Of a stretch of 64,000 bases of DNA, positions 5,674 to 24,643 are shown in pieces. Positions within the stretch are counted from its first letter, which is position 1. Every line of letters starts with the position of its first letter. The notes beneath the pieces were generated by a model. It ran no database searches, was not told where the DNA came from, and saw nothing but the letters and a program-made list of their open reading frames with translations. The position numbers and the translations under genes are program-made. The stretch comes from Pristiophorus japonicus (taxonomy: Eukaryota), in NCBI RefSeq assembly GCF_044704955.1, contig NC_091999.1, positions 53,692,001-53,756,000 on the forward strand. Reading direction: 5' to 3'.

Positions 5674-6019
5674 CTATTAACGAAATTAAACGTATGTTCC
5701 AACCAAAAAAAAGTATTGCATCTTCCTACCCACACGCATAAATATCTTTATCTATATTAATATCTATCCATCGTCGATATAACTTCTGTCTCTCTAACAG
5801 ATGCATGGCAGAAATAACTGCCAACAGTGTCTGTTGTACAATAAATAGAGATATAGTCCCTGGAGAGGGAGTTCATCCAAAACTATCTCAGACCGAGGAG
5901 AAAGTGAGACACCCTGAGCCTCGGTTGACACAAACAGGCATTGTCTTGTGAAGTCAATGGATACATGGCCCAGTCTAACATAAAGGCAGACAGGGCCCAG
6001 TGTTACAGGAAGAGGGACA

Positions 6020-7195
6020 AGGTCTAGGGTAATATAAACAGAGACATGGTCTAGTGTAATATAAACAGAGACAGGGTCTAGTGTAATATAAACAGAGACC
6101 GGGTCGAGTGTAATATAAACAGAAACAAGGTCCTGTGTAATACAAACAGAGACCGGAGATAGTGTAATATAAAGAGAGACATGGTCTAGTGTAATATAAA
6201 CAGAGACATGGTCTAGTGTAATATAAACAGAGACAGGATCTAGTGTAATACAAACAGAGACCGGGTCGAGTGTAATATAAACAGAGACAAGGTCTAGTGT
6301 AATATAAACAGAGACATGGTCTAGTGTAATATAAATAGAGACAAGGTCTAGTGTAATATAAACAGAGACAGGGTCTAATGTAATATCAACAGAGACAGGG
6401 TTTTGTGTAATATAAACAGAGACAGGGTCTCGTGTAATATAAACAGAGACAGGGTCTAGTGTAATATAAACAGAGACAGGGTCTAGTGTAATATACACAG
6501 AGCCAGAGTCTAGTGTAATATAAACAGAGACAAGGTCTAGTGTAATATAAAGAGAGACATGGTCTAGTGTAATATAAACAGAGACAGGGTCTAGTGTAAT
6601 ACAAACGGAGACAGGGTCTAGTGTAAAATATACAGAGACATGGTCTAGTGTAATATAAACAGAGACAAGGTCTAGTGTAATATAAACAGAGACATGATAG
6701 AGTGTATATTAACAGAGACACGGGCTAGTGTAATATAAACAGAGACAGGGTCTTGTGGAATATAAACAGAGACAGGGTCTCGTGTAATGTAAACAGAGAC
6801 AAAGTCTTGTGTAATTTAAACAGACACAGGGTCTAGTGTAATATAAAGAGAGACAGGGTCTCGTAAAATAGAAAGAGGAACCGGGTCTAGTGTAATATAA
6901 ACAGAGACAGGGTCTAGTGTAATATAAAGAGACTGGGTCGACTGTAATATAAACAGAGACAGGGTCTAGTGTAATACAAACAGAGACAGGATCTAGTGAA
7001 ATATAAAAAGAGACATAGTCTCGTGTAATGTAAACAGAGGCAGGGTCTTGTGTAATACAAACAGAGACAGGGTCTAGTGTAATATAAACAAATACAGGGT
7101 CTAGTGTAATTTAAAAGAGACAGGGTCTAGGGTAATATAAACAGATACAGCGTCTCGTGTAATATAAGAGAGACAGTGCCTAGTGTAATGTAAAC
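6020..7195. repeat. 27-bp minisatellite (GTCTAGTGTAATATAAACAGAGACAGG)n
   Basis: Direct; translates on the - strand as (YITLDPVSV)n or (YYTRPCLCL)n. Confidence 0.97.
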
Positions 7196-7196
7196 A

Positions 7197-9216
7197 AAAG
7201 AACATAAGAAAAAGGAAAAGTAATCGGCCACCTGGCCCCTCTAGCCTGCTCGCCATTTAATAAGATCATGGCTGATCTGATCATGGACTCAGCTCCACTT
7301 CTCTTCCCGATCCCCATAACCCTTTATTCTCTTATCACTCAAACATCTTTCTATCTCCGCCTTAAATATATTCCATGACCTAGACTGCACAACTCTCTTG
7401 GGCTGAGAATTCCATAGATTTACATCCCTCTGAGCGAAGAAATTCCCCGTTAGCTCAGTTTTAACTGTGCAGCTTGTTTTTCTGAGACTATGTCCCCTAG
7501 ATTTAATTATCCCTATGAGTGGAAGTATCCTCTCTGCATCCACATTGTCGAGTGCCGTCATTATCTTATAATTTGCAATAAGATCACCTCTCATTCTTCC
7601 GAACTCCAATGTGTATAGGCCCAACCTACTCACAATATCTTCATAATTCAATACCATCATCTCCGGAATCAACCTTCGCTGGAAAGCCTCCAATGCAGGT
7701 ATATCCTTCCTTAAATAAAGGGGCCAATACTGGACGCAGTACTCTAGATGTGGCTTCACCAATATCCTGTAGAGTTTTGTCCACTCACTTAGTCTGTCCA
7801 TATCTATTTACAGATTATTGGTGTCCTCCTCACAATTTTCTTTCCCACCCTTCTTTTTATCATCTGAAAACTTGGCTACATTACACTGGGTCCCTTCATC
7901 CAAGTCATTACTATCGATTGTAAATAGTTCAGGTTCCTCCACCGATGCCTGCGGCATACCACAATATACTGTTTTCCAATCGGAAATTGACCCATTTCTC
8001 CCGACCCGCCGATCTGTTAGTTAGCCAATCATCTATCCATGCCAATATATTGCCCTCAACCCCAAGAACTTTTATCTTGTGCAGTAACCTTTTATGCGGC
8101 ACCATATCGAATGCCTTGTGGAAATTCAAATACACCACATCCAGTGGATCCCCCTAATCAACCCTGCTCGTTTCATCCTCAAAGATCTTCAGCAAATTTG
8201 TCAATCATGTCGTCCCGTTCATGAAACCATGCTGATTCTGCTTGATTGAATTTTGCTTTTCCAAATCTCCCACTACTGCTTCCTTAATGGACTCCAGCAT
8301 TGTCCCAATGACAGATGTTCAGCTCACTGGTCTATAGTTTCTTGCTTTTTGTCTGATTATTTTTTTAAATAGTGGCACTACATTTGTAGTTTTCCAATCC
8401 GCGGGGCCAGCCCCAGAATTCAAGGAAGTTTGGTAGATTACAACCAATGCATCAACTATCTCTGCTGCCACTTCTTTTAGTACCATAGGATGTAACCCAT
8501 CAGGCCTTGGGGACTTGTCCGCCTTTAGTCACATCATTTTACCGAGTACGACTTCATTAGTGATAGTGATTGTAATAAATTCCTCCCTCCCTATAGCCCC
8601 TTCATTTTCCACAATTTGGATGGTTTTAGAGTTTGCTACCATGAAGACCGATACAAAATATTTGTTCAACGTCTCTGTCATTTCTCTGTTCTCCATTATT
8701 AATTCCCCAGTCTTATCCGCTTGATGACCAACATTTATTTTAACCTCTCTTTTGCTTGTTACCTGTAGAAACTCTTACTATCTGTTTTTATATTTTGCGC
8801 TAGTTTACTTTCATAATCTATCCTCCCTCTCCTTATCATTTGTTTAGTTGTTCTTTGCTAGCTTTTAAATGTTTCCCAGTCCTCTGGACTCCCACTAGTC
8901 TTGGCCACATTGTATGCCTTTGTTTCCAATTTGATACCATCCCGATTTCCAGAGTTAGCCACGGATGGTTACCCCCTCTCTTATAGTCTTGCCTTCTAAT
9001 TGCGTTATTTTTTTGTTGCGAGTTATGAATTATCTACTTAAATGCCTGCCACTGCTCATCAACCGTCCCATATTTTTATCTATTTTCCTAGTCCGCTTTA
9101 GCCACCACTGCCCTTATACCTTTGTCGGCTCGTTTATTTAAGCTTTGGACAGTGGTTTGAAAACCAACTCTCGCACTCTCCAATTGAATTTGAAATTCAA
9201 CCGTGTTATGGTCATT
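7197..9216 (-). mobile_element. CR1 LINE, 5'-truncated, with internal deletion near 7775
   Basis: AAGAACATAAGAA tail complement; ORF fragments VYLNFHKAFDMVPHKRLL and HLEYCVQYWP...VNLWNS. Confidence 0.92.
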
Positions 9217-9644
9217 CATAGATTAGTACAGCACAGGAGGTGATAATTTAGCTCATAGAGTCTGTGCCGGCTCTTTCGAAGAACAACCCAGTTAGTCCCA
9301 TTCCTGTGCACTTTCCCTATATCACTGCATTTTTTCCTCCTTCAAGTATTTGTACAATTTATTTTTGAAGGAAACTATTGAGTCTGTATCTACCACCCTA
9401 CCACGCAGTACAATACAAATCCTAACCAGTGGTTGCATAGAAAATTGCGTCCAAATATCGCCTCTGGTTTTTTTGTTAATCACCTTACATCTGAAACAGT
9501 TTCTATTTATTTACTCTATCTAAACCTTTGATGATTTTCAATAGATCTGTCAAATCTCCTCTTAGATTTTTCTCCTCCAAGGAGAACAATCCCATATTCT
9601 CCAGTCTCTACACATTAATTGAAGTCCCTCATGCCTGGTACGAA

Positions 9645-10998
9645 TATTGGTGGGAAAATGTCGGAGCCCATTAATAAAGAGCAGTAGCAGTACATTTGGA
9701 AAAGCAAAAATCGGTGAGGCAGAGTCAGCATATATTTATGAAGGGGGGAAGTCATGTTTGATAAATTTGCTGGCGTTCCTTGAGTATGTCGCAAACAGGG
9801 TGGATAAAGGGGAACCATTAGATAGGGTGCTTTGGACTTCCAGAAGGAATTTGACAAGGTGCCACATAAAAGGTTACTGCACAAGATAAAAGCTCAGGGG
9901 CCTGGCGTAATATATTAGCATGCATAGAGGATTGGAACAGAGAACAGAGAGTCGGGATAAATGGCCCATTCTCTGATTGTCAACCAGTAACTAATGGCGT
10001 GCCGCAGGATCAATGCTGCGACCTCAACTAATTACAATCTACATTAACTACTTGGAAGAAGGGACTGAGTGTAACATAGCCAAGTTTGCTGGCGATAACA
10101 AAGATGGGAGGAAAAGTAATGTGTGAGGAGGAAACACGTAATCTGCAAAAAGACACAGACAGGCTAAATAAGTGAGAAAAAAATTGCTAGATGGAGTATA
10201 ATGTTGTACAGTGAGAGGTCATGCACTTTGGCCGAAAAAAAACGAACAGCATTATTATTTAAATGGAGAATGATTGCAAGTGCCGTAGTACAGCGGGACC
10301 TGAGGGTACTTGTGCATGAAACACAAAAGGATAGTATGCAGGTACAGCAAATGATCAGGAAGGCCAATGGTATTTTGGACTTCATTGCAAAGGGGATGGA
10401 ATATAAAAACAGGGAAGTCTTGCTACAGCTATATAAGGTATTGTTGAGGTCACACCTGGAATACTGCGTGCAGTTTTGGTTTCCATATTTGCGAAAGGAT
10501 ATACTTGCTTTGGAGGCAGTTCAGAGAAGATTCATTAGGTTGATTCCGGGGATGAGTGGTTTGACTTATGAGGAAAGGTTGATTAGGTTGGGCCTCTACT
10601 CATTGGAATTCAGAAGAATGAGGGGTGATCTGATCGAAACGTATAAGATTATGAGGGAGCTTGACAAAGTGTATACAGAGAGGATGTTTCCACTGATGGG
10701 GGAGAGTAGAACTAGCGGGCACGATCTTAGAATGGGGGCCGCCCATTTTAAAACAGATATGAGGAGAAATTTGTTCTCTCAGAGGGTTGTAAATCTGTGG
10801 CATTCGCTGCCTCAGAGAGCTGTGGAAGCTGGGACATTGAATACATTTAAGACAGAGATAGACAGTTTCTTAAACGATAAGTGGATAAGGGGCTGATTCC
10901 ATGGTCAGATCAGCTATGATCGTATTGAATGGCGCAGCAGGCCCGAGGGGCCGTATGGTCTACTCCTGCTCCTTTTTATTATGTTCTTATGTTCTTAT
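9645..10998 (+). mobile_element. CR1 LINE 3' part (RT region and C-terminus), unit-1 specific
   Basis: ORF 10201..10896 (LYKVLLRSHLEYCVQFWFPY, RRMRGDLIETYKIM) and a (TTCTTATG)n tail. Confidence 0.93.
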
Positions 10999-14991: not shown

Positions 14992-15567
14992 TGTCGAGGA
15001 AACTTAGCTTAAATTAACTCAGGCGGAGACTTTCAGAATTTGCTTCGAGAGCAGTTTATTACTAAAACTAGCAAGATATCTTGGAGAGCCCGCTTAGTCC
15101 GTACCAAGGCAGAACTCTGAAGTTTAACAGGCAAATATGCTCTATTCTTATACTATTGAAACAGGAATTTTATCTGTAACTTACCACTCAAGTACATTAT
15201 TCATACATTCTTTGTAAATGCCATCAAAGCAAGAACTTTATCTAAAACTCCACACATAAACATTATTCATATATTCCGTGAGTACAAAGGTCATCTATTA
15301 CACATGAGCATTATTCATACATTACAAAGGTCATCCCGGTAGGCACATTTTATCTCTTTCTTGCATAGTTTCTCCCTGTCCTTTTTTGATAACCAGCTAT
15401 CTGGATACTCATATAAACACCAGATAGTCATGTATATAGAATTTTCTGTTCTTTGAGGTTGATAAGGTTCGGTAATTCTCTCCAGCTTCGTGAATTGTAC
15501 AGAGTCAGCAAAAGCGAACTTAACCCTTCCTTCAACCTAGGACAAGGATTGGGTTTCTTCTTCTACA
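14992..15567 (-). repeat. ERV 3' LTR (576 bp; TGTAG...CGACA)
   Basis: TG...CA termini on the - strand; AATAAA at 15060-15055; matches 24072-24643. Confidence 0.96.
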
Positions 15568-17672
15568 ACTCCCTCCTTGTTGATCCTTTTCAGATCAACA
15601 TTTTCCCATATGTTGGAAAAAAGGGGCTCATATCCATCCGGGTAGGGTCGCATTTCCAGGCATTTCTCCTCATCGTAATCATCGATATTTTCTTCTATGC
15701 GATTTAACCTTTCTTTTATGAACACACCCTTTCTTTCTACTCTGGATACTAGGCTCATTACTTGACCCATCAATTTTTTCACTTTTAACCATATTGCACA
15801 AATGATTATCAATAGCGCAAGCATAACTGCACCCATGATTACTATGGGGTGTATAGCCAGTTTCAATATGGCTGAGGCCCTTGGGGACCATCCGTAAAAC
15901 ACATCCCACCAGTGGCGGTCTGTTAAGGCGGTGACCTCATCAGCGATTCTTACTAGTTGTCCCTTCCTGTAAGTCATTTCAATTCTAAACTGGTGGATGT
16001 CTCTTCCTCGTTTAGAAAGAGCTTCCTCAATTTGCTTGTCATTACGTATCAAATTGTGCAGTCTGGTCAGATTAATTATAGTGGGTAGGGGGTCAATCCT
16101 GTGCACAGAGAGGTATTTTTTAACATTTTGCCATTGCCCAAAGGTATAGGTTCTTTTTTCTTCAGGGTCATACAAGGTGTATACTTCTCTTACACAAGTA
16201 TTAATGGGGGGCCTATATAGAATTCCATCCAGATAGACCGATTTATTTTCCGTCATACAGACTTCATTCGGACCAATTTCTGCAATCTCAGTGTCATTTG
16301 TCGGCCTCAGTTCCCACTTACATACTCCCGTGGGGTGTTTCAATGTACATGGTTCGTAAATGACAGTCTGATAGGGGCAGACCATCCCGAATGGCCATCT
16401 ATCACATCCCCTATGGTGATGAGTCAAATTCTTTTCATCGACCCAATCTCCTTTAAACTCCGGATACCAGAAATTCTGTCCAAACAACTGGGGCATTACT
16501 TGAAACTGACACCAACTTTCTTGCTTTGTCCTAGTTACTGTTTCCATAGTTATATTACATCCGTTTGAATCACAACTGGTATATCTTTCTTGGGGCTTAA
16601 TAGTTAAATTAAGAAGCTTATCCTTCTGATTGATTCTTAACAACCTTTCCCATGTGTCAGCATGGAAGGACAATATTTTCCTCTCCAGCTCGGCTCTCAA
16701 TAGCTGCCTGATCAGTTCTCTAAACATGCACTGGGAGTACTTATTTATTCCCTGCTGCTCCTTCATCAGGTTCTCCATCTCCTTTTCTATCCTTTCATTC
16801 TGCTTCCAGGTCATTTTGTCCGTTACGTAACCTGATACTTGTAGTTGTTGCAACCCTTCATCCCAGGCGTTCCTTATTCTTATGCCTTCTCCTACCAGTC
16901 CTCCGACGACCTGGATCTTATTTTGTAGGGCCTCAATGTCCATAGTGTTTAATGCTCCTATCCCGGCTCCTATCCCACCTAGCACAGTCCCTAACACATC
17001 CTGTTTCTTTCTCGGAGGCTTCTCTATTCTAAACGACACTTCAACATTAGTGGTGTTGCAGCCGCCTTTTTCTTTTGGAGGATATTTAATTTGAACTGTT
17101 AAATTTAATACTCCTGGGGACCTTACCACGGGGATGCAGGTGGTCAGCATCCCTTTCAAGTGTCCCGGAACTTTTGGGGAATGCTTATTTTGGTTGTGGG
17201 TCCACTGTTTAATATAAGTTATTCCGTTTATTATTTTTGTGAGATTCATACACTTTACCCATTCGCATCTTCCTATTAAGAAGTGACAATTCTCCTCTGG
17301 TCCACATAATGTGCCATTGGTTTCCTGATTCTCACCTTGGTCCGTGCTGCTCAGGCAATTCATGTCCACCTCCCAGTTTAGAGATATATTAAATCCTTCC
17401 TCACTGGTCACTTTCACCTCTCCTGATTGCTGATCTATTCCTACTCAGCAAGCTTTACACCTCACTGTGAAATTCCCTATCTTGCAGTTTTTTCGTTCTG
17501 GGCATATAAAGTTGCCTTGCTGCGTCGTCTTATCAATTTTCTACCACTTCACATCTCCCTTCCATACCTTCCCTTCTTCAAGTAATTCTTCCTCCTGTCT
17601 GACTCTCCTTACTGCTAAAAGGATTCGAACGCCCAGTGTCCATTTATAGTTCTTCCAACAATCCCACCTCAT
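15537..17672 (-). pseudogene. env: ERV envelope glycoprotein; probable ATG 17672, in-frame stops at 17543 and 17447, then 636 open codons
   Basis: RKKQ (degenerate furin site, 17012-17001) plus fusion peptide DVLGTVLGGIGAGIGALN, heptad region, Cys-rich region, HWWDVFYGWSP, TM HPIVIMGAVMLALLIIICAIWL, YEPL tail; ends 31 nt inside the LTR. Confidence 0.9.
15569..15578 (-). promoter_or_regulatory. Polypurine tract (AAGGAGGGAG)
   Basis: Purine run one base before the TG of the 3' LTR. Confidence 0.85.
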
Positions 17673-17884
17673 CTTCTCTTTTCTGTTTATTCCGATAACA
17701 CTCTTGAACTAGTTCGTTACAATAACCACACGCAAGCACGAAAGTAACAGTAACCAGAACAATGAAGGCCCAAGTTGGCGCACAAATGAGTTCGGATATT
17801 CGGCCCTGGATATAAGGGCAGGTACAGTTCTTTTAGCGAGAAGATGGCTGTTTTCTTAGTCGGGCAACCGTAGCTCGTCCTGGT

Positions 17885-20800
17885 TCAATTCTTTGCTTTC
17901 GGCTGTGATTCGTCGGGGAAATAATATTTACAACGGGTCGCATGCACCCAGTTCGGGTGCTTTTCCAACTTCAAAGCGGTTCGTGTTGTGAGGATGATCT
18001 GATATGGTCCTTTCCACCGAGGAGAAAAGGATTCTTTGTTTAAAGTTTTTACTAACACTTGCTCTCCAGGCCTAAAAGGGTGCATATTTCCTTCCGACGG
18101 GGGCACCTGTGTCTGCTTTATTTGTTCGTGCAGACTCCTTGCTATTTCACACATGGCTTGAGCATACTTTAATGATTTTTCATCATTCCAAATTAATGCT
18201 ATTTTTATAGCCACCAATGGTGGTTTTACGCCGGTAGGCATGGGTCTTCCCAGCAAGGCTTCATGTGGTGTCAAACCGGTATTTCGGTTCCTTTGGTTTC
18301 TTATCGTATACAGCACCAAAGGTAAGGCATCTGGCCACTTTAGTCCTGTCTCCTGACATACCTTGGTGAGGGTAGATTTTATTATCCCATTTACTCGCTC
18401 TACAATTCCTGAGGACTGTGGCTGATATGCTATATGTAACCTCCACTGGAATCCTAATGCTTCTGCAAGATTTTTCACTACTTTTCCTGTGAAGTGTGTT
18501 CCCCTGTCACTGTTAATTCCCATAGGTATCCCATATCTTGGTACTATTTCTTTAAATAGAATTTTTACTACTGTTCGGGCATCGTCTTTCCTGGTGGCGG
18601 ATGCTTCCACCCACCTCGTGGACATATCTACTATGACTAATAGGTACTTGAGACCTGATACTGGAGGCAAGTGAACAAAATCAATTTGTAAATTTTCAAA
18701 GGGCATACTTGGTTGGGGTAGATGATCATATTCAGCAGGTGTTTTACCTCTGTTATTTTGTTGACAAATTTGGCATGTTCTAGCACCTTTTCAATGATCA
18801 CTGTTATTCCTGGTGCATACCACTGTGCATTAATAGCTTGTATCATCCCTCCCTTGCCCATGTGAGCCTGACCGTGTGCTAGGCGAGACAGGGGCAAAAA
18901 TAGAGATCTTGGGCAAACAGTTCGCCCATCAGGGTGATACCAGATGTCGTTTTTCAGAAAACAAGTCTGGTTTTCCCAAGTCCTTCTTTCTTGCATGGTA
19001 ACTTGTTGCTGGGCTGTTTTAAGTAGTTTGGTGTCAAGTGTCTGTGGAAGGGAGACTGAGACTGCTTGAAGGCAGTTTGTCTGTGCCAAAGCGGCCTGTT
19101 TGGCTGCCTCGTCAGCCCTCCTATTTCCTACCGACACTGCATCCTTACCGGTTGTGTGAGCTGCACATTTGATAACGGCCACCCTACTTGGCAACTGAAT
19201 GGCGTCTAATAAATTAAGCACCAATTGAGAGTGCTTAATATGCTTTCCTCCAGAGGTGATAAAGCCTCTGTTTTTCCATAGTTGTCCAAAATCATGGACC
19301 ACACCAAATGCATATCTAAAATCAGTATAGGTCTTGGCAGTTTGATCTTTTGCTATTATACAAGCTCTGGTGAGGGCAAACAATTCAGCAGCCTGAGCCG
19401 AGGTTCCGGGAGGCAGGGCAAATGCTTCAACAGTTTCATGGGGGTTTACGATTGCATAGCCTGCCAAGAGTAAATCATCTGACGGCCTGTTCGACGATCC
19501 ATCTGTGTAGAGAATGAGATCAGGATTGTCCATAGGCTCTGTGAGCAAATCTGGTCTTGGCAAGGTGGCTATTTCCACTGTTAATAGACAATCATGCTGG
19601 TCTGGATCTTCTACTTCAGTAGTAGGAAGGAAAGTGGCTGGGTTTCCTACTGGTGCGCCCCGAAAGGTGTAATTAGGATGTGACAGCAGCAATACCTCAT
19701 AACCGGTTCTTCTAGATGCTGTAAAATGTTGTGTGGCAGCGGAATTCAACAGTAATAACACAGCGTGAGCTGTCACGACAGTGCATGGATAGTCCAAAAC
19801 AATAGGTACCGACTTCTCAACCATGACCGCGGTGGCTGCTACGGCACGCAGACATGCTGGCATTCCGTTTACCACTGGAGGCAGCAAAACCGAATAATAA
19901 GTCACTGGTCTATTTCCCCCACCGTGTTCTTGGGTTAGTACGGCTGTTGCGAATCCTTCCTTTTCATTTACATACAGTTGAAAAGGTTTTCCATAATTTG
20001 GAAGTCCCAGCGCCGGGGCATTAGTGATCGCTTTCTTTAACTGTTTGAATGCTTCCTCCCTCTCAGGGGTCCATTCCACCTTGGGTGGGGCATCATTCAG
20101 TGCAGCTGATCTTAGGACTGCATCCCATTCCCGATAATCAGGGATAAATTGTCTACAGTACACAACCATCCCCAAAAATGACAAGATATCCTTCTTTGTC
20201 TTAGGTATGGTGGCTTTTTGAATTGTCTGAATTATTTCTGGTCCTATGTGCCTTTGCCCTCGAGATATGCGAAAACCCAGGTACTGGACTTGAGTCTGAC
20301 AACATTGTAACTTTTGTAACGACACTCGGTGCCCTCTTTCACATAGGTGTTGTAATAGTTTCAGGGAGTCCTGCATACAACTATATCCGTGGTTGGAAGC
20401 CACAAGCAAATCGTCCGCATACTGCAGCAGTATGGCATGGTCTGAAAAGGTACAATCTTCGAGGTCTCTCTTTACTGCAGCGGCATACACTGCGGGGCTT
20501 TCTGTATACCCTTGGGGCAACCTGGTCCAGCTGTACTGCTGTTTTTTGTAGGTGTAGGCAAACAGATACTGACTCTCTTGACTTAATGGGATGGAGAAAA
20601 AGGCTCAGCACAGATCTACCACCGTAAAGACAGTTGCTGTTGGTGGGATAGCAGATAGTATAATGTTGGTGTCCGGTACCACAGGGGTGATAGGGACCAC
20701 TATCTTGTTAATAGCTCTCAGATCTTGCACAAATCTCCACTCATTTGGCCTATTAACCTTCGGTATGGGCAGTATCGGAGTGTTACACGGGCTCTGTGTC

Positions 20801-22017
20801 TTTTCTTGAACTCCTTGATCCAACAATGCAGAAATGACTGGCTTTATCCCATCTTCCGCCTCTGGAGGCAGTCTGTACTGCCTAATGCTTGGTAACACGG
20901 CGTTCTTTATCAATTGTACCCGATGGGGTACTGCAGACTCTACTTTCCCAACATGATTCTTATGTTTTGCCTAAAGTTCCGAAGATACTTGATTCAATGC
21001 CATTGGCAGCTTAGGGCTCGGTTGCTCAGGGGACTGCTGTTTTTTAAAAGTGGAGGCATGACCCTTACCCTTCCACCAGAGAATCCCACTATTGCGGGTG
21101 ATACATTCTATCTGAACAGTTTGTAATCCTATTACTGCCCAAGGTTTATAATCTGGTTGCTGTTTTTCATTATCGATTTCCACGATCATTGGACCCATAT
21201 CTCTGGGATTCGCCGGCGGTTTTACGGCTAATGTCAAATGGGGTGTCGAGTTTTCTTCTTTAAACCGCTCCTGCTGTAATGGTGTCAAATCCATGGCTAC
21301 CCCTAATCCTTCTGGTCCGAAATAGATACGGGGTGTGGCTTCTATTATCTCTTCTTTGTTGAGAGAGGGCTGTATTAAGCACTGGTAAGTTTCAGCTTTC
21401 TGTCGAGTGTACCAGGCTGTGCAGTGAAGCTGAACTGCCTCAAAGCTTGTTAAAATTATATACATCAATTCTTCGGTATTAGAGTCGAATTTAGTTTTGA
21501 ATTTTTGTATTATCTCATGTATAAAAGGGGAATAGAAGTTGCCATTCAACTGCCAATAATAGAGAGTCGCCGTTTCTTTGCTCTCTTCCCCCTTTTCCCC
21601 CTCAGTCCCTTTGAGGAATTGATGGATTTTATTAGGTGGGAGTTCCATGAACATTCCCTCCTGTGTACAATAAATTGTGGCTCCCAATTTACATAAAGTC
21701 TGTCGTCCTAATAAAGGGAGAGGCGCTGTTTTAGAGACTATCAAAGCTTCGTCATTAACCTGTTGTCCTTCAATAATCAATCTGGTAGGTTCAGATAAAA
21801 AATATTTCATGGGGATACCGGCCACGCCCATGCTTAAGACGGTTGTGTTGCTTACAGATAATCCCACAGAGGGTGGTACAGAAGACATAGTAGCACCGGT
21901 ATCCACCAGGAACTTCACATAAGTGTTCCCTATTTTTACTACTGCTGGAGGGTTTTCTTCTATGTCGGCTGATAAGCGGAGGGCTGCCGCTTGTACCACC
22001 ATGCCTCCGGGGCATCC
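17885..22017 (-). pseudogene. pol: ERV pro-pol: protease, 2H phosphodiesterase, RT, RNase H, integrase; stops at 20973 and 20607, frameshift near 18778
   Basis: FLVDTGA (D codon at 21903), LLGR, LPQGYTESP, QYADDLL (YADD 20421-20410), YTDGS/SAQAAEL/IKCAAH, H..H..CQIC, IDF/SDRG/VER integrase core, WKGPY. ORFs 20971..22002, 20605..20913 and 18637..20520 share one frame. Confidence 0.97.
21040..21570 (-). other. CNPase-like 2H phosphodiesterase domain inside Pol
   Basis: Two HxT motifs, LHCTAWY (His codon 21426) and PHLTLAV (His codon 21240), 62 aa apart, with intervening IYFGPEGLGVAMDL matching the vertebrate CNPase pattern. Confidence 0.85.
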
Positions 22018-23723
22018 CTATGCTGATTGGTGTGGGTTGGGGTTCGAGAACGAAAACTGAGGGATCAATGAAGGTGGAGGTTCGGGCAAGTTCCCTTGTA
22101 ACCTTCCAGGCTGCTTCGGTGGGCATCTGCAATCCCGGGCCCAATGTCCTTTTCTTCCACAATTTCTACACTCATCTTGGGATCGATCTCGTGATTCCCA
22201 CTGTATCTTCCCCTTCCTCGTCCTTATCCCCCAAACCCTCCTTTATTATTCTGTGTGTACCCTCTTCCTTTTTGCTGATAGTATTGACCTGTCGTTTTGG
22301 CCTTATTGTCTCTGTAGGTGAATAGTCCCTCTCTATCCATATTGGCTAGTACTGTAATGGTCTCTTTCCAACCGTTTCCTTGCCAGTCTAGAACCTTTAT
22401 ATTATAGGTTCTCGCGTGTTGTTGAAACATACAATTTAACAAGGTTTGTACTGCCAATGGTTCATGTTGATCCATGGGTATTCTGGCATGTTCGTCCCAA
22501 CTATTTTTCCATCTGCCGGCGAAGTCTATCATTGATTCTTCGGCCTTCTGTAAGCAGCGGGTGACTTCCCCTATATCCCCATGCTTTTTAGCCCCTTGCA
22601 TAACTGCATTCTTTCCTCGGTGTTTCAGCCAATGGTTTAATGACTCATTGCCGGCCTCTACCAAGTCATCATTAACTCTCCAGTCTCCGTGTTCCCCTGC
22701 TGGGATGGGGAACATATCCTTTACCCCCTGCCAGGAAGATCCATAGGCTGCTTGCAATAGTAATTTAACATCTCCTCGGAGTGGATTGTAAATTGTACAT
22801 GTTTACTCAAGCCAGTTGTGGAATGCTACCGGTTTCTTCACCGGATTTGGGGCGGCCGAGATCATATCTCTGGCTTCTCCGGGGGACCATGGTTTTAAGA
22901 CTGCAGTAGTTCCTATTATTACCCGAGGCAGTTGTACAGTAGAATCGGCCTGTGCCTGTTCTCCTTCTCGTTCTCTGGCCGTTTGCAGCCTTGTTGGATA
23001 GGGATTTCTTTCTCCCTGGTCCCAACTTACTTCTCCGTGCTCTATAGGTCTAGCTTCCCCTGCCCCTGATGCTTCCGGGTTTACTCCACCGGCCCCGTCA
23101 TTAGGTGACCGAGCCGGAGGGGCTGCTAGTTCCCTCGGAGCTTGATTTCTATGGGCAGTGATTATTTCTATAAGTTCCTGCCAGCTATCTTGTTTTGGGG
23201 GTTTTATGCGAGGGTAAAGTCCTACTACAGGTGCTGAGGGGATAGGAAAACCCGGAGGACTGTAAGAGGGAGGGTTTTCACCTTTTCCCTTTTCTTTTCC
23301 TTCCGGTTTAATTTTGGGGGGTTGATGCCTCTTGGCAACCTCTGTCCATTTTTTAAAACAGTTTTCCATGTAGTCCTTATCCCATGTAGGATCTCCCCCT
23401 TCTTCTCTGGTTATTTTTCTCCATTCCTCTATTAAGGATAACTTAAAACTTCCTCCATACGGCCAGTCCCCATCAGACCAACCGTACAAATCGCTGCTAA
23501 ACGTTACCGCGTATCTGTCGTCTCCGGTTTCTTTAATTACAGTGTCCGCCGGCGAGACGGGCGGCACGATGGGATCTCCTACCTTCTCTCGTTGCTTTAT
23601 TACCTTACGGATTTTCTTCTCGGTTTGAGGATTTAACTTCATTCTTTCAGTCGAGGGATCGTCCTTCTTTCCTTCTCTAGGAACTAGGCGTAAGCGCCCT
23701 GCTCGACTAGAGCCATTTCCCAT
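22018..23723 (-). pseudogene. gag: ERV gag; stops at 22805 and 22226, frameshift between ~22200 and 22170; terminal TAG in frame with pro
   Basis: MGNGSS myristoylation signal, WPYGGSF matrix motif, PPSY/PSAP/LYPRI late motifs, QKAEESMIDFAGR MHR-like motif, CRNCGRKGHWARDC knuckle (22170-22129), TAG GGA TGC CCC readthrough context. Confidence 0.95.
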
Positions 23724-24048
23724 TATTCCGGGTGCAACTTCTCGCGGTTTTTTTTCGGAAATGAGAGTTAGAACACTCCTACAAAATATACAATAATTTA
23801 CAAAAGCGCTCACCGGTGTTCTCTTTTCCGCTCAGCTCGGAGTCTCCTTTGTGCCTTTTTGTTACTTTAGCTTCTTTACGGTAGCTACCTTAAATGCCTC
23901 ACCCCCTCCAGGGGATCTCGGCGGCCTGTCCTTTGTCTTTTGGACTGCCTAGGTACCTTCCTCCTTTCAGCTAGGAAGGTCCTCTTTTTAATTCCTCTTT
24001 TCTTTAAAAGTGACATTTTAGTTATTTTTTGGATCTCGTTTAAAAGTG

Positions 24049-24066
24049 ATCCTGCCGACTACACCA
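24049..24066 (-). promoter_or_regulatory. Primer-binding site, tRNA-Ser
   Basis: + strand ATCCTGCCGACTACACCA is a 17/18 match to the vertebrate tRNA-Ser(AGA/TGA) 3' end ATCCTGCCGACTACGCCA (recalled); 5 nt from the LTR CA. Confidence 0.88.
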
Positions 24067-24071
24067 AAAAC

Positions 24072-24643
24072 TGTCGAGGAAACTTAGCTTAAATTAACTC
24101 AGGCGGAGACTTTCAGAATTTGCTTCGAGAGAAGTTTATTACTAAAACTAGCAAGATATCTTGGATAGCCCGCTTAGTCCGTACCAAGGCAGAACTCTGA
24201 AGTTTAATAGGCAAATATGCTCTATTCTTATACTATTGAAACAGGAATTTTATCTGTTACTTACCACTCAAGTACATTATTCATACATTCTTTGTAAATG
24301 CCATCAAAGCAAGAACTTTATCTAAAACTCCACACATAAACATTATTCATATATTCCGTGATTACAAAGATCATCTATTATACATGAGCATTATTCATAC
24401 ATTACAAAGGTCATCCCGGTAGGCACATTTTATCTCATTCTTGCATAGTTTCTCTCTGTCCTTTTGTTGATAACCAGCTATCTGGATACTCATGTAAACA
24501 CCAGATAGTCATGTATATAGAATTTTCTGTTCTTTGAGGTTGATAAGGTTCGGTAATTCTCAACAGATTCGTGAATTGTACAGAGTCAGCAAAAGCGAAC
24601 TTAACCCTTCCTTCAACCTAGGACAAGGATTGGGTTTTTTCTT
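24072..24643 (-). repeat. ERV 5' LTR (outer ~5 bp missing)
   Basis: 14 substitutions and 1 indel versus the 3' LTR by manual count; TATAAG at 24232-24227. Confidence 0.95.

Follow-up and report, generated by a model that had tools for sequence, protein, structure and literature searches.

We find that the Pol polyprotein of an endogenous retrovirus (ERV) in the shark Pristiophorus japonicus carries, between its protease and its reverse transcriptase (RT), a 2H domain that is predicted to have the fold of CNPase (2',3'-cyclic-nucleotide 3'-phosphodiesterase). The domain is real, conserved and selected, and it is already known in fish retroviruses; because it is an old, little-followed observation, the copy described here, which lies in a window of 64,000 nucleotides (NC_091999.1, positions 53,692,001 to 53,756,000), contributes one more host lineage and no new kind of system. 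By analogy with the nearest enzymes, we consider it likely, at a probability of roughly 55%, that the domain is a virion-borne enzyme acting on RNA ends that bear a 2',3'-cyclic phosphate, or on small nucleotides, in or near the particle.

The provirus spans positions 14992-24643 of the window on the minus strand. From the 5' to the 3' LTR its features are as follows:

24072..24643, minus strand: 5' LTR, its outermost few bases unlike those of the 3' LTR
24049..24066, minus strand: primer-binding site, read from the sequence, starting with TGG 5 bases inside the LTR and presumably similar to the end of a serine tRNA
22021..23831, minus strand: gag, split over several frames; its one CCHC zinc knuckle, at the end of Gag, shares the reading frame of pro
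22018..22020, minus strand: in-frame TAG at the gag/pro junction, probably of the read-through type
21673..21960, minus strand: retroviral aspartyl protease (ORF aa 20-115; PF00077, E 5e-9)
21052..21585, minus strand: 2H phosphoesterase domain predicted to be CNPase-like, with no break in this copy (ORF aa ~145-322, the range of the model that aligned to CNPase)
21418..21426, minus strand: first catalytic motif, H198-C-T200, with an aromatic residue at +5, the position of CNPase Phe235
21232..21240, minus strand: second catalytic motif, H260-L-T262
21163..21207, minus strand: predicted helix past the second motif, placed as CNPase helix alpha7 (model helix 132-146, pLDDT 81-89)
18637..20973, minus strand: RT and RNase H (PF00078, PF00075), in the same frame as the protease and the 2H domain
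17885..18790, minus strand: integrase core and MLV-type C-terminal domain (PF00665, PF18697), in another frame
15537..17444, minus strand: env-like ORF of 635 aa, called from its position and reading frame
14992..15562, minus strand: 3' LTR, preceded by a purine tract

Protease and 2H domain share a single minus-strand ORF of 348 aa (20971..22017), in which the protease motifs DTG and LLGR lie at 21903-21895 and 21714-21703, and the Pfam families follow one another along pol in the order protease, RT, RNase H, integrase. At the stop of WDSV that corresponds to the TAG between gag and pro, stop suppression has been predicted (PMC3185560). The two LTRs are 97.4% identical (572 columns; 14 mismatches, 1 gap), and no target-site duplication was recognised at the provirus ends. 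RT is broken by in-frame stops at 20973-20971, directly after the 2H domain, and at 20607-20605; with these stops, and with the reading frame shifting within gag and again ahead of the integrase core, the copy in the window is defective, a dead fossil of such a virus. A second copy, 99% identical and sharing the first RT stop, is located 25 Mb away on the same contig, and the nearest named protein, also from P. japonicus, is 78-81% identical. The env-like ORF abuts the 3' LTR with no accessory ORFs downstream, and it yielded neither a Pfam family at a useful E-value nor an HxT-type motif in a motif scan. The provirus itself sits within a degenerate tandem array (window 400-64000) of ~9-12 kb units containing 27-base repeats and LINE fragments.

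The first-pass annotation had described extra residues after the protease with motifs of the LHCTAWY and PHLTL types, 62 residues apart, and had proposed that they form a CNPase-like 2H domain. Both motifs are indeed there, as H198-C-T and H260-L-T with exactly that spacing, and the extra length is ~180 residues: Pols that carry the domain are ~180-195 residues longer between protease and RT than those without it, the distance between protease and RT motifs being mostly 280-310 in carriers as opposed to 93-154 in the others. Assigning the insert took more than its motifs, since Pfam gave no meaningful family (PF05881, the CNPase family, was unmatched at E-values up to 1) and a PDB search with the single insert sequence gave no match; when the full alignment served as the query, RT matches crowded out all else in the PDB. 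BLASTP of the insert against the host's own CNP found no match, and a search of the host genome with PF05881 recovered the host CNP gene alone. A local alignment to the catalytic domain of host CNP nevertheless brings both HxT motifs and an ETY stretch into register, with a score of 55 compared with 31 +/- 4.9 for shuffled sequences, of which 1 in 2000 scored as high. A profile built from 16 retroviral inserts reached host CNP at an E-value of only 0.007 (among 93 sequences). Taken alone, the sequence evidence for a relation to CNPase is weak, and it is the predicted structure that settles it.

A fold predicted from the single sequence was unusable (pLDDT 32). We rely on a model whose underlying alignment comprises 30 retroviral sequences and no host CNP; it has a pLDDT of 66 and a pTM of 0.68, its C-terminal 35 residues falling below 50. 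With this predicted model, every match that Foldseek listed from the PDB was CNPase or its relative RICH (best E 1.7e-5), and in a structural comparison with 48,161 chains CNPase came first (Z 13.7, rmsd 4.1, 171 residues aligned), the runner-up standing at Z 7.9. The CNPase-like fold proposed at the outset is thus borne out at the level of a model. Taking the structural comparisons together, human and mouse CNPase score 13.4-14.4, RICH 13.2, a fungal kinase-CPD (6u05) 11.0 and the NMR structure of rat CNPase 9.6; lower down come Acb1 (7.9), LigT (7.8), Usb1 (7.4-7.5), ns2 (6.7) and AKAP18 (6.6-6.7), and lowest are VP3 (6.4 and 5.8) and the penguinpox cGAMP phosphodiesterase (5.9). The top 20 of the 48,161 chains (Z at least 5.5) are nearly all 2H proteins, by their titles or, for part of them, by families that we take to belong to the 2H group. 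Both HxT motifs lie on strands of the model (E59-65 and E121-126). A language-model search likewise pointed to clusters of the tRNA-ligase CPD and of 2H proteins, at a recognition value below the tool's threshold. Together these results identify the insert as a 2H domain with a predicted CNPase fold.

The predicted active site is CNPase-like in some respects and altered in others. Pro and Gly follow the second catalytic His at +11 and +15, the same layout as in CNPase, with the Gly also found in host CNP, and past the second motif the model contains a feature resembling helix alpha7 together with the loop that precedes it. Helix alpha7 is conserved in vertebrate CNPases and absent from other 2H enzymes, and it has been tied to stereospecificity and substrate size (PMC4643303). 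The positions of CNPase Arg307 and Val321, which we mapped by their offset from the catalytic His through an alignment of host and human CNP, are occupied by Thr and Arg in the viral domain. In mouse CNPase, mutation of these two residues is reported to raise KM and not to lower kcat (PMC4643303).

Copies of the provirus in the same genome indicate that the domain has been maintained. Searching the genome with the domain gave 1292 candidates, and the 150 scored were all 78-100% identical to it. We examined 50 copies of the family, the 30 best matches and 20 more distant ones picked for long frames, and all 50, chosen as they were by similarity to the domain, retain both HxT motifs. The conservation of these motifs in related proviruses, and a dN/dS comparison across ERV copies, had been put forward as checks, and both come out in favour of a maintained domain. 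Over 765 pairs below 93% identity, pooled Nei-Gojobori dN/dS is 0.16 (0.09-0.30) for the 2H core and 0.26 for the whole domain, and 0.20 for both the protease and the start of RT, values that are biased low by the choice of copies and come from pairs that share history and are not independent. Among 291 close pairs the values are noisy and higher (core 0.48, whole domain 0.51, protease 1.38, RT 0.33), as expected after integration. The domain was nevertheless clearly constrained during the replicating life of the virus, its core being, between sub-lineages, under purifying selection like that on protease and RT.

Other loci of the host genome also bear sequences of this kind. A second large ERV family (L035-L064) has its own, distant 2H domain, with 30 of 30 loci matching the profile, and in several of its copies the first motif has gone with an internal deletion. 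At G000:C3:232.76-232.92 Mb the domain recurs more than 20 times, regularly every ~5.35 kb, in a tandem array of a proviral fragment. The host CNP gene (G000:C21:4.66-4.67 Mb; L033, L031) was read as three coding exons; in the exon read, the end of the predicted protein shows no obvious prenylation motif, and the gene may have one more exon.

For host range we turned to 87 related Pol proteins picked by likeness of their RT; as queries, the domain alone recovered one longer relative and the protease plus the domain four, and a scan of viral contigs with the ORF of the window gave no match. The profile matches 34 of the 87 Pols at E <1e-6, 13 of which had contributed to its seed. The domain precedes RT in 33 Pols, in some of them as a partial copy, and follows RNase H in one. 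In 26 Pols without the domain the protease adjoins RT, another 26 lack the start of the protease, so that their slot gives no score, and in one more the insert is an unrelated one. Named carriers are mostly teleosts, with a skate in addition; named non-carriers include WEHV-1, WEHV-2 and elements of amphibians, reptiles, birds and a bat, and the named amniote Pols in the set are all without it. The domain is no speciality of sharks, being common among the elements of teleosts.

By RT, the shark family groups as sister to a clade that includes elements of tuna and of an Antarctic fish (SH-aLRT 94), and the 2H tree recovers the same pairing of shark and teleosts (support 82), with the shark's own CNP far away. 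Both come from quick searches with unstarred support values, the RT tree covering Pols with 200 to 300 aligned RT residues and the 2H tree leaving aside five domains that were partial or duplicated others. Support is strong in neither, and the pattern would fit a single old capture of the domain followed by its descent with pol. The RT of the window is 43% identical to that of WEHV-1 and 60-64% identical to those of a teleost ERV clade. By RT grouping, in-frame gag-pro stop and single CCHC knuckle the provirus fits the epsilon-like (class I) fish ERVs; it lies outside the genus Epsilonretrovirus itself, the WEHV Pols falling elsewhere in the tree and the env of the window being short and abutting the LTR. 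One Pol (P0015) that the RT tree places close to this family has a different insert of ~170 aa in the slot between protease and RT (aa about 105-265); it has no HxT motifs, Pfam was silent on it and the language-model search was uninformative.

The domain is found in two further positions of retroviral polyproteins. In a distant retroviral Pol (P0093) it lies between RNase H and integrase (aa 763-899), with both motifs. When our model was compared with viral models by Foldseek, WEHV-1 Env (E 3e-8), an unnamed entry and WDSV Env (E 2e-7) led the list, within a range of 3e-8 to 2e-7, and after a gap the next match stood at 3e-3. A walleye-type epsilonretrovirus contig (L086) gives the same picture in sequence: it is 12,708 bases long, its pol is 67% identical to that of WEHV-1, and its 1229-aa Env ORF (5962-9648) contains the domain at aa 1028-1115 (E 8e-13), with the motifs 62 residues apart. 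Its length equals the size given for WDSV (PMC3185748). Two further ORFs accompany this Env, and the Pol of the contig lacks the 2H domain. A hydrophobic segment near aa 851 precedes the domain, which by hydropathy would form a cytoplasmic tail. Occurrence of one domain in three polyprotein positions suggests an accessory that acts in trans rather than a structural part of RT, and the three placements point to a movable accessory enzyme.

That the domain might be a neutral passenger, either a functionless host fragment or a recent capture of shark CNP, could be argued from the many retroviral lineages that do without it. We regard this as barely credible and as largely refuted: selection and distribution contradict it, in that dN/dS is 0.16-0.26, the motifs are kept across distant lineages, the domain occurs in three placements and the shark's own CNP is at a great distance. 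The recent-capture variant was considered separately and is ruled out by that distance together with the ancestry common with teleost elements.

Catalytic residues are not kept everywhere. Of the 34 divergent retroviral domains, which are roughly 13-26% identical to that of the window, 27 have both motifs, one is truncated and in six a catalytic residue has been lost; the sister clade of the shark family accounts for four of these six. Of 16 tuna proteins, 14 extend across the second motif, and every one of these has Tyr in place of His in a Pol frame that is otherwise long. The teleost sister clade (the P0008 cluster, P0010, P0011 and P0013), with one or both catalytic histidines replaced, provides candidate pseudo-enzymes. 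These losses, and the many Pols without the domain, indicate that catalysis is dispensable in some lineages. The domain thus behaves like an accessory that is useful in some settings, a pattern that would also be typical of immune antagonists in elements confined to the germ line.

Retention of the domain in six of 34 cases despite lost catalytic residues, a state that is fixed in the tuna family, is what would be expected if its role were non-catalytic: the domain might bind RNA or nucleotides, serve as a spacer, or act where the virus buds as a decoy against host CNP/RICH. A further point for this reading is that host CNP, by being targeted to the membrane and contacting Gag, blocks the assembly of HIV-1; this restriction needs C-terminal prenylation and Asp72 of the P-loop domain (PMC10761555). 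The viral domain has neither the prenylation tail nor the P-loop domain, so the connection to HIV-1 restriction drawn in the first-pass annotation is a weak one. Moreover, both motifs persist in 27 of the 34 domains at only ~13-26% identity and in all three positions, and we think a purely non-catalytic role unlikely.

We return to the enzymatic reading, on RNA ends or small nucleotides with a 2',3'-cyclic phosphate. CNPase and the fungal CPD are 2',3'-cyclic phosphodiesterases and the model includes the CNPase-specific helix, from which we infer His/Thr catalysis with a 2'-phosphate product. The enzymes nearest in fold open 2',3'-cyclic phosphates (PMC5434554), and this chemistry is therefore the one we prefer; Iyer et al. 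have likewise proposed that some RNA-virus 2H domains process cyclic 2',3' ends (PMC9503650). The RNA-end processing mentioned in the original annotation is compatible with it. In such a scheme the domain would be made by Gag-Pol read-through and packaged into the virion, where, at or close to the RNA inside the particle and its primer tRNA, it would open 2',3'-cyclic phosphate ends to 2'-phosphates. Its targets would be the cyclic-phosphate ends or small cyclic nucleotides left by metal-independent RNases of the host, and the effect would be less ligation or sensing of such ends. Its origin may have been one early capture from a CNP-like host gene, with descent along pol, losses and moves thereafter. 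Against this stand the 15-18% identity to CNPase, the middling model and the changed Arg307 and Val321 positions. The fold ranking also leaves specificity unfixed, since 2H enzymes readily change substrate (PMC11410667).

Release from the polyprotein can be considered in terms of WDSV, whose protease sites have Gln at P2 (PMC3185560). A Gln-hydrophobic pair is present after the protease in 13 of 21 carriers, which are kin and not independent, and before RT in 8 of 21, the background being 354 of 1393 windows (25%). The copy studied here has such a pair after the protease and none before RT.

Retroviral DNA triggers cGAS, cGAMP can be packaged in virions and fish have cGAS-STING. These facts favour a different substrate, 2',3'-cGAMP, whose destruction, including that of any packaged cGAMP, would make cGAS-STING less able to sense reverse-transcribed DNA. 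In each of its three positions the domain would moreover face the cytosol or the particle interior, and phage Acb1 and the 2H enzymes of avian poxviruses do hydrolyse cGAMP (PMC11410667). We keep this reading because 2H enzymes switch substrates, but hold it to be rather improbable: Acb1 (Z 7.9) and the penguinpox cGAMP phosphodiesterase (5.9) score far below CNPase (13.7), and the CNPase helix has been linked to a limit on the size of substrates and to 2',3'-cyclic specificity (PMC4643303). In addition, amniote retroviruses meet the same sensor, yet the domain is missing from every named amniote Pol in the set of 87.

The first-pass annotation had also drawn an analogy to ns2 and VP3 as destroyers of 2-5A, according to which the domain would be a 2-5A phosphodiesterase that antagonises OAS-RNase L. 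The host does possess a cluster of about five OAS-like genes (G000:C8:218.42-218.60 Mb), with 16 exon matches to PF10421. A KEN-domain search of the host genome found two loci, which from their motifs we take to be IRE1, and no clear RNase L, from which absence does not follow. The OAS-RNase L system is functional in a cartilaginous fish and was lost in the ancestor of ray-finned fish (PMC10400998). As ray-finned fish are the hosts of most named carriers, which are teleosts, 2-5A is unlikely to be the common substrate. The analogy fails in structure as well, with ns2 (6.7), AKAP18 (6.6-6.7) and VP3 (5.8-6.4) some 7 Z units below CNPase (13.7), and we consider a 2-5A phosphodiesterase highly improbable.

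Strong purifying selection, the three polyprotein positions and retention in hosts that lack OAS-RNase L, when combined, leave cyclic-phosphate ends or cyclic dinucleotides as the substrate. In its most far-reaching form, which we put forward as a doubtful proposition, the picture is of a host-derived CNPase domain kept through most of jawed-vertebrate history, movable, directed at the particle interior and erasing a cyclic-nucleotide immune signal, for example cGAMP or cyclic-ended RNA. If this were true, retroviruses would have their first second-messenger nuclease, and the AKAP7-like and Acb1-like enzymes would be joined by a third route of independent origin to such a defence. The answer on substrate would also bear on the long-open question of the natural substrate of CNPase, since viruses are not expected to keep the domain for a role in myelin.

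The caution in the original annotation that 2H domains had already been noted in fish ERVs agrees with two reviews, one stating that some ray-finned fish elements encode a CNPase (PMC4977317, citing Basta et al. 2009), the other placing 2H domains in a fish retrovirus and WDSV (PMC9503650, citing Mazumder et al. 2002). The main text of a paper on elephant shark ERVs (PMC4422223) does not mention a phosphodiesterase, nor did we find one mentioned in the accessible portions of PMC8672886, PMC3185748 and bioRxiv 2021.11.23.469661; the accessible portions of PMC11410667 do not mention retroviruses. In our literature search no retroviral 2H domain had been tested for function, and neither a shark nor an Env tail was reported to have the domain, the scope of the search being main articles, and supplements, Basta 2009 and Mazumder 2002 may place the domain alike.

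CNPase and RICH (PF05881; PDB 1woj, 2xmi, 2i3e) are the best fold match to the viral domain (Z 13.2-14.4), and CNPase shares with it both HxT motifs, an aromatic residue at the Phe235 position, the helix past the second motif and the matching Pro and Gly. The viral domain differs in being just 15-18% identical, in falling outside a PF05881 match and in its changed Arg307 and Val321 positions; compared with the whole CNPase protein it also lacks the N-terminal P-loop domain and the C-terminal prenylation motif, and it is embedded in a polyprotein with protease and RT as its flanks. The CPD of the fungal tRNA ligase Trl1 (PF08302; PDB 6u05) is the second-best fold class (Z 11.0), and PF08302 accounts for 22% and 63% of the members of the neighbouring language-model clusters, but identity is 11% and the provirus has no kinase or ligase partner. 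The anti-immune 2H enzymes of viruses (Acb1, MHV ns2, the C-terminal domain of rotavirus VP3 and the poxvirus cGAMP phosphodiesterase) have in common with the domain the superfamily, the two HxT motifs and the viral setting. Their structural scores are clearly lower (Z 5.8-7.9), and they probably represent an acquisition separate from the CNPase branch. The epsilonretroviruses WDSV, WEHV-1 and WEHV-2 resemble the provirus in their single CCHC knuckle, in-frame gag-pro stop, fish host and possession of the same domain; in these viruses, however, it is absent from Pol and located in Env, and the env of the window is half as long as theirs, with no accessory ORFs behind it. Closest of all are the CNPase-like and 2H domains noted earlier in fish retroviruses, which belong to the same domain family and virus group, in a slot common to 33 of the 87 Pols, and from which the domain described here is set apart by its host, a cartilaginous fish.
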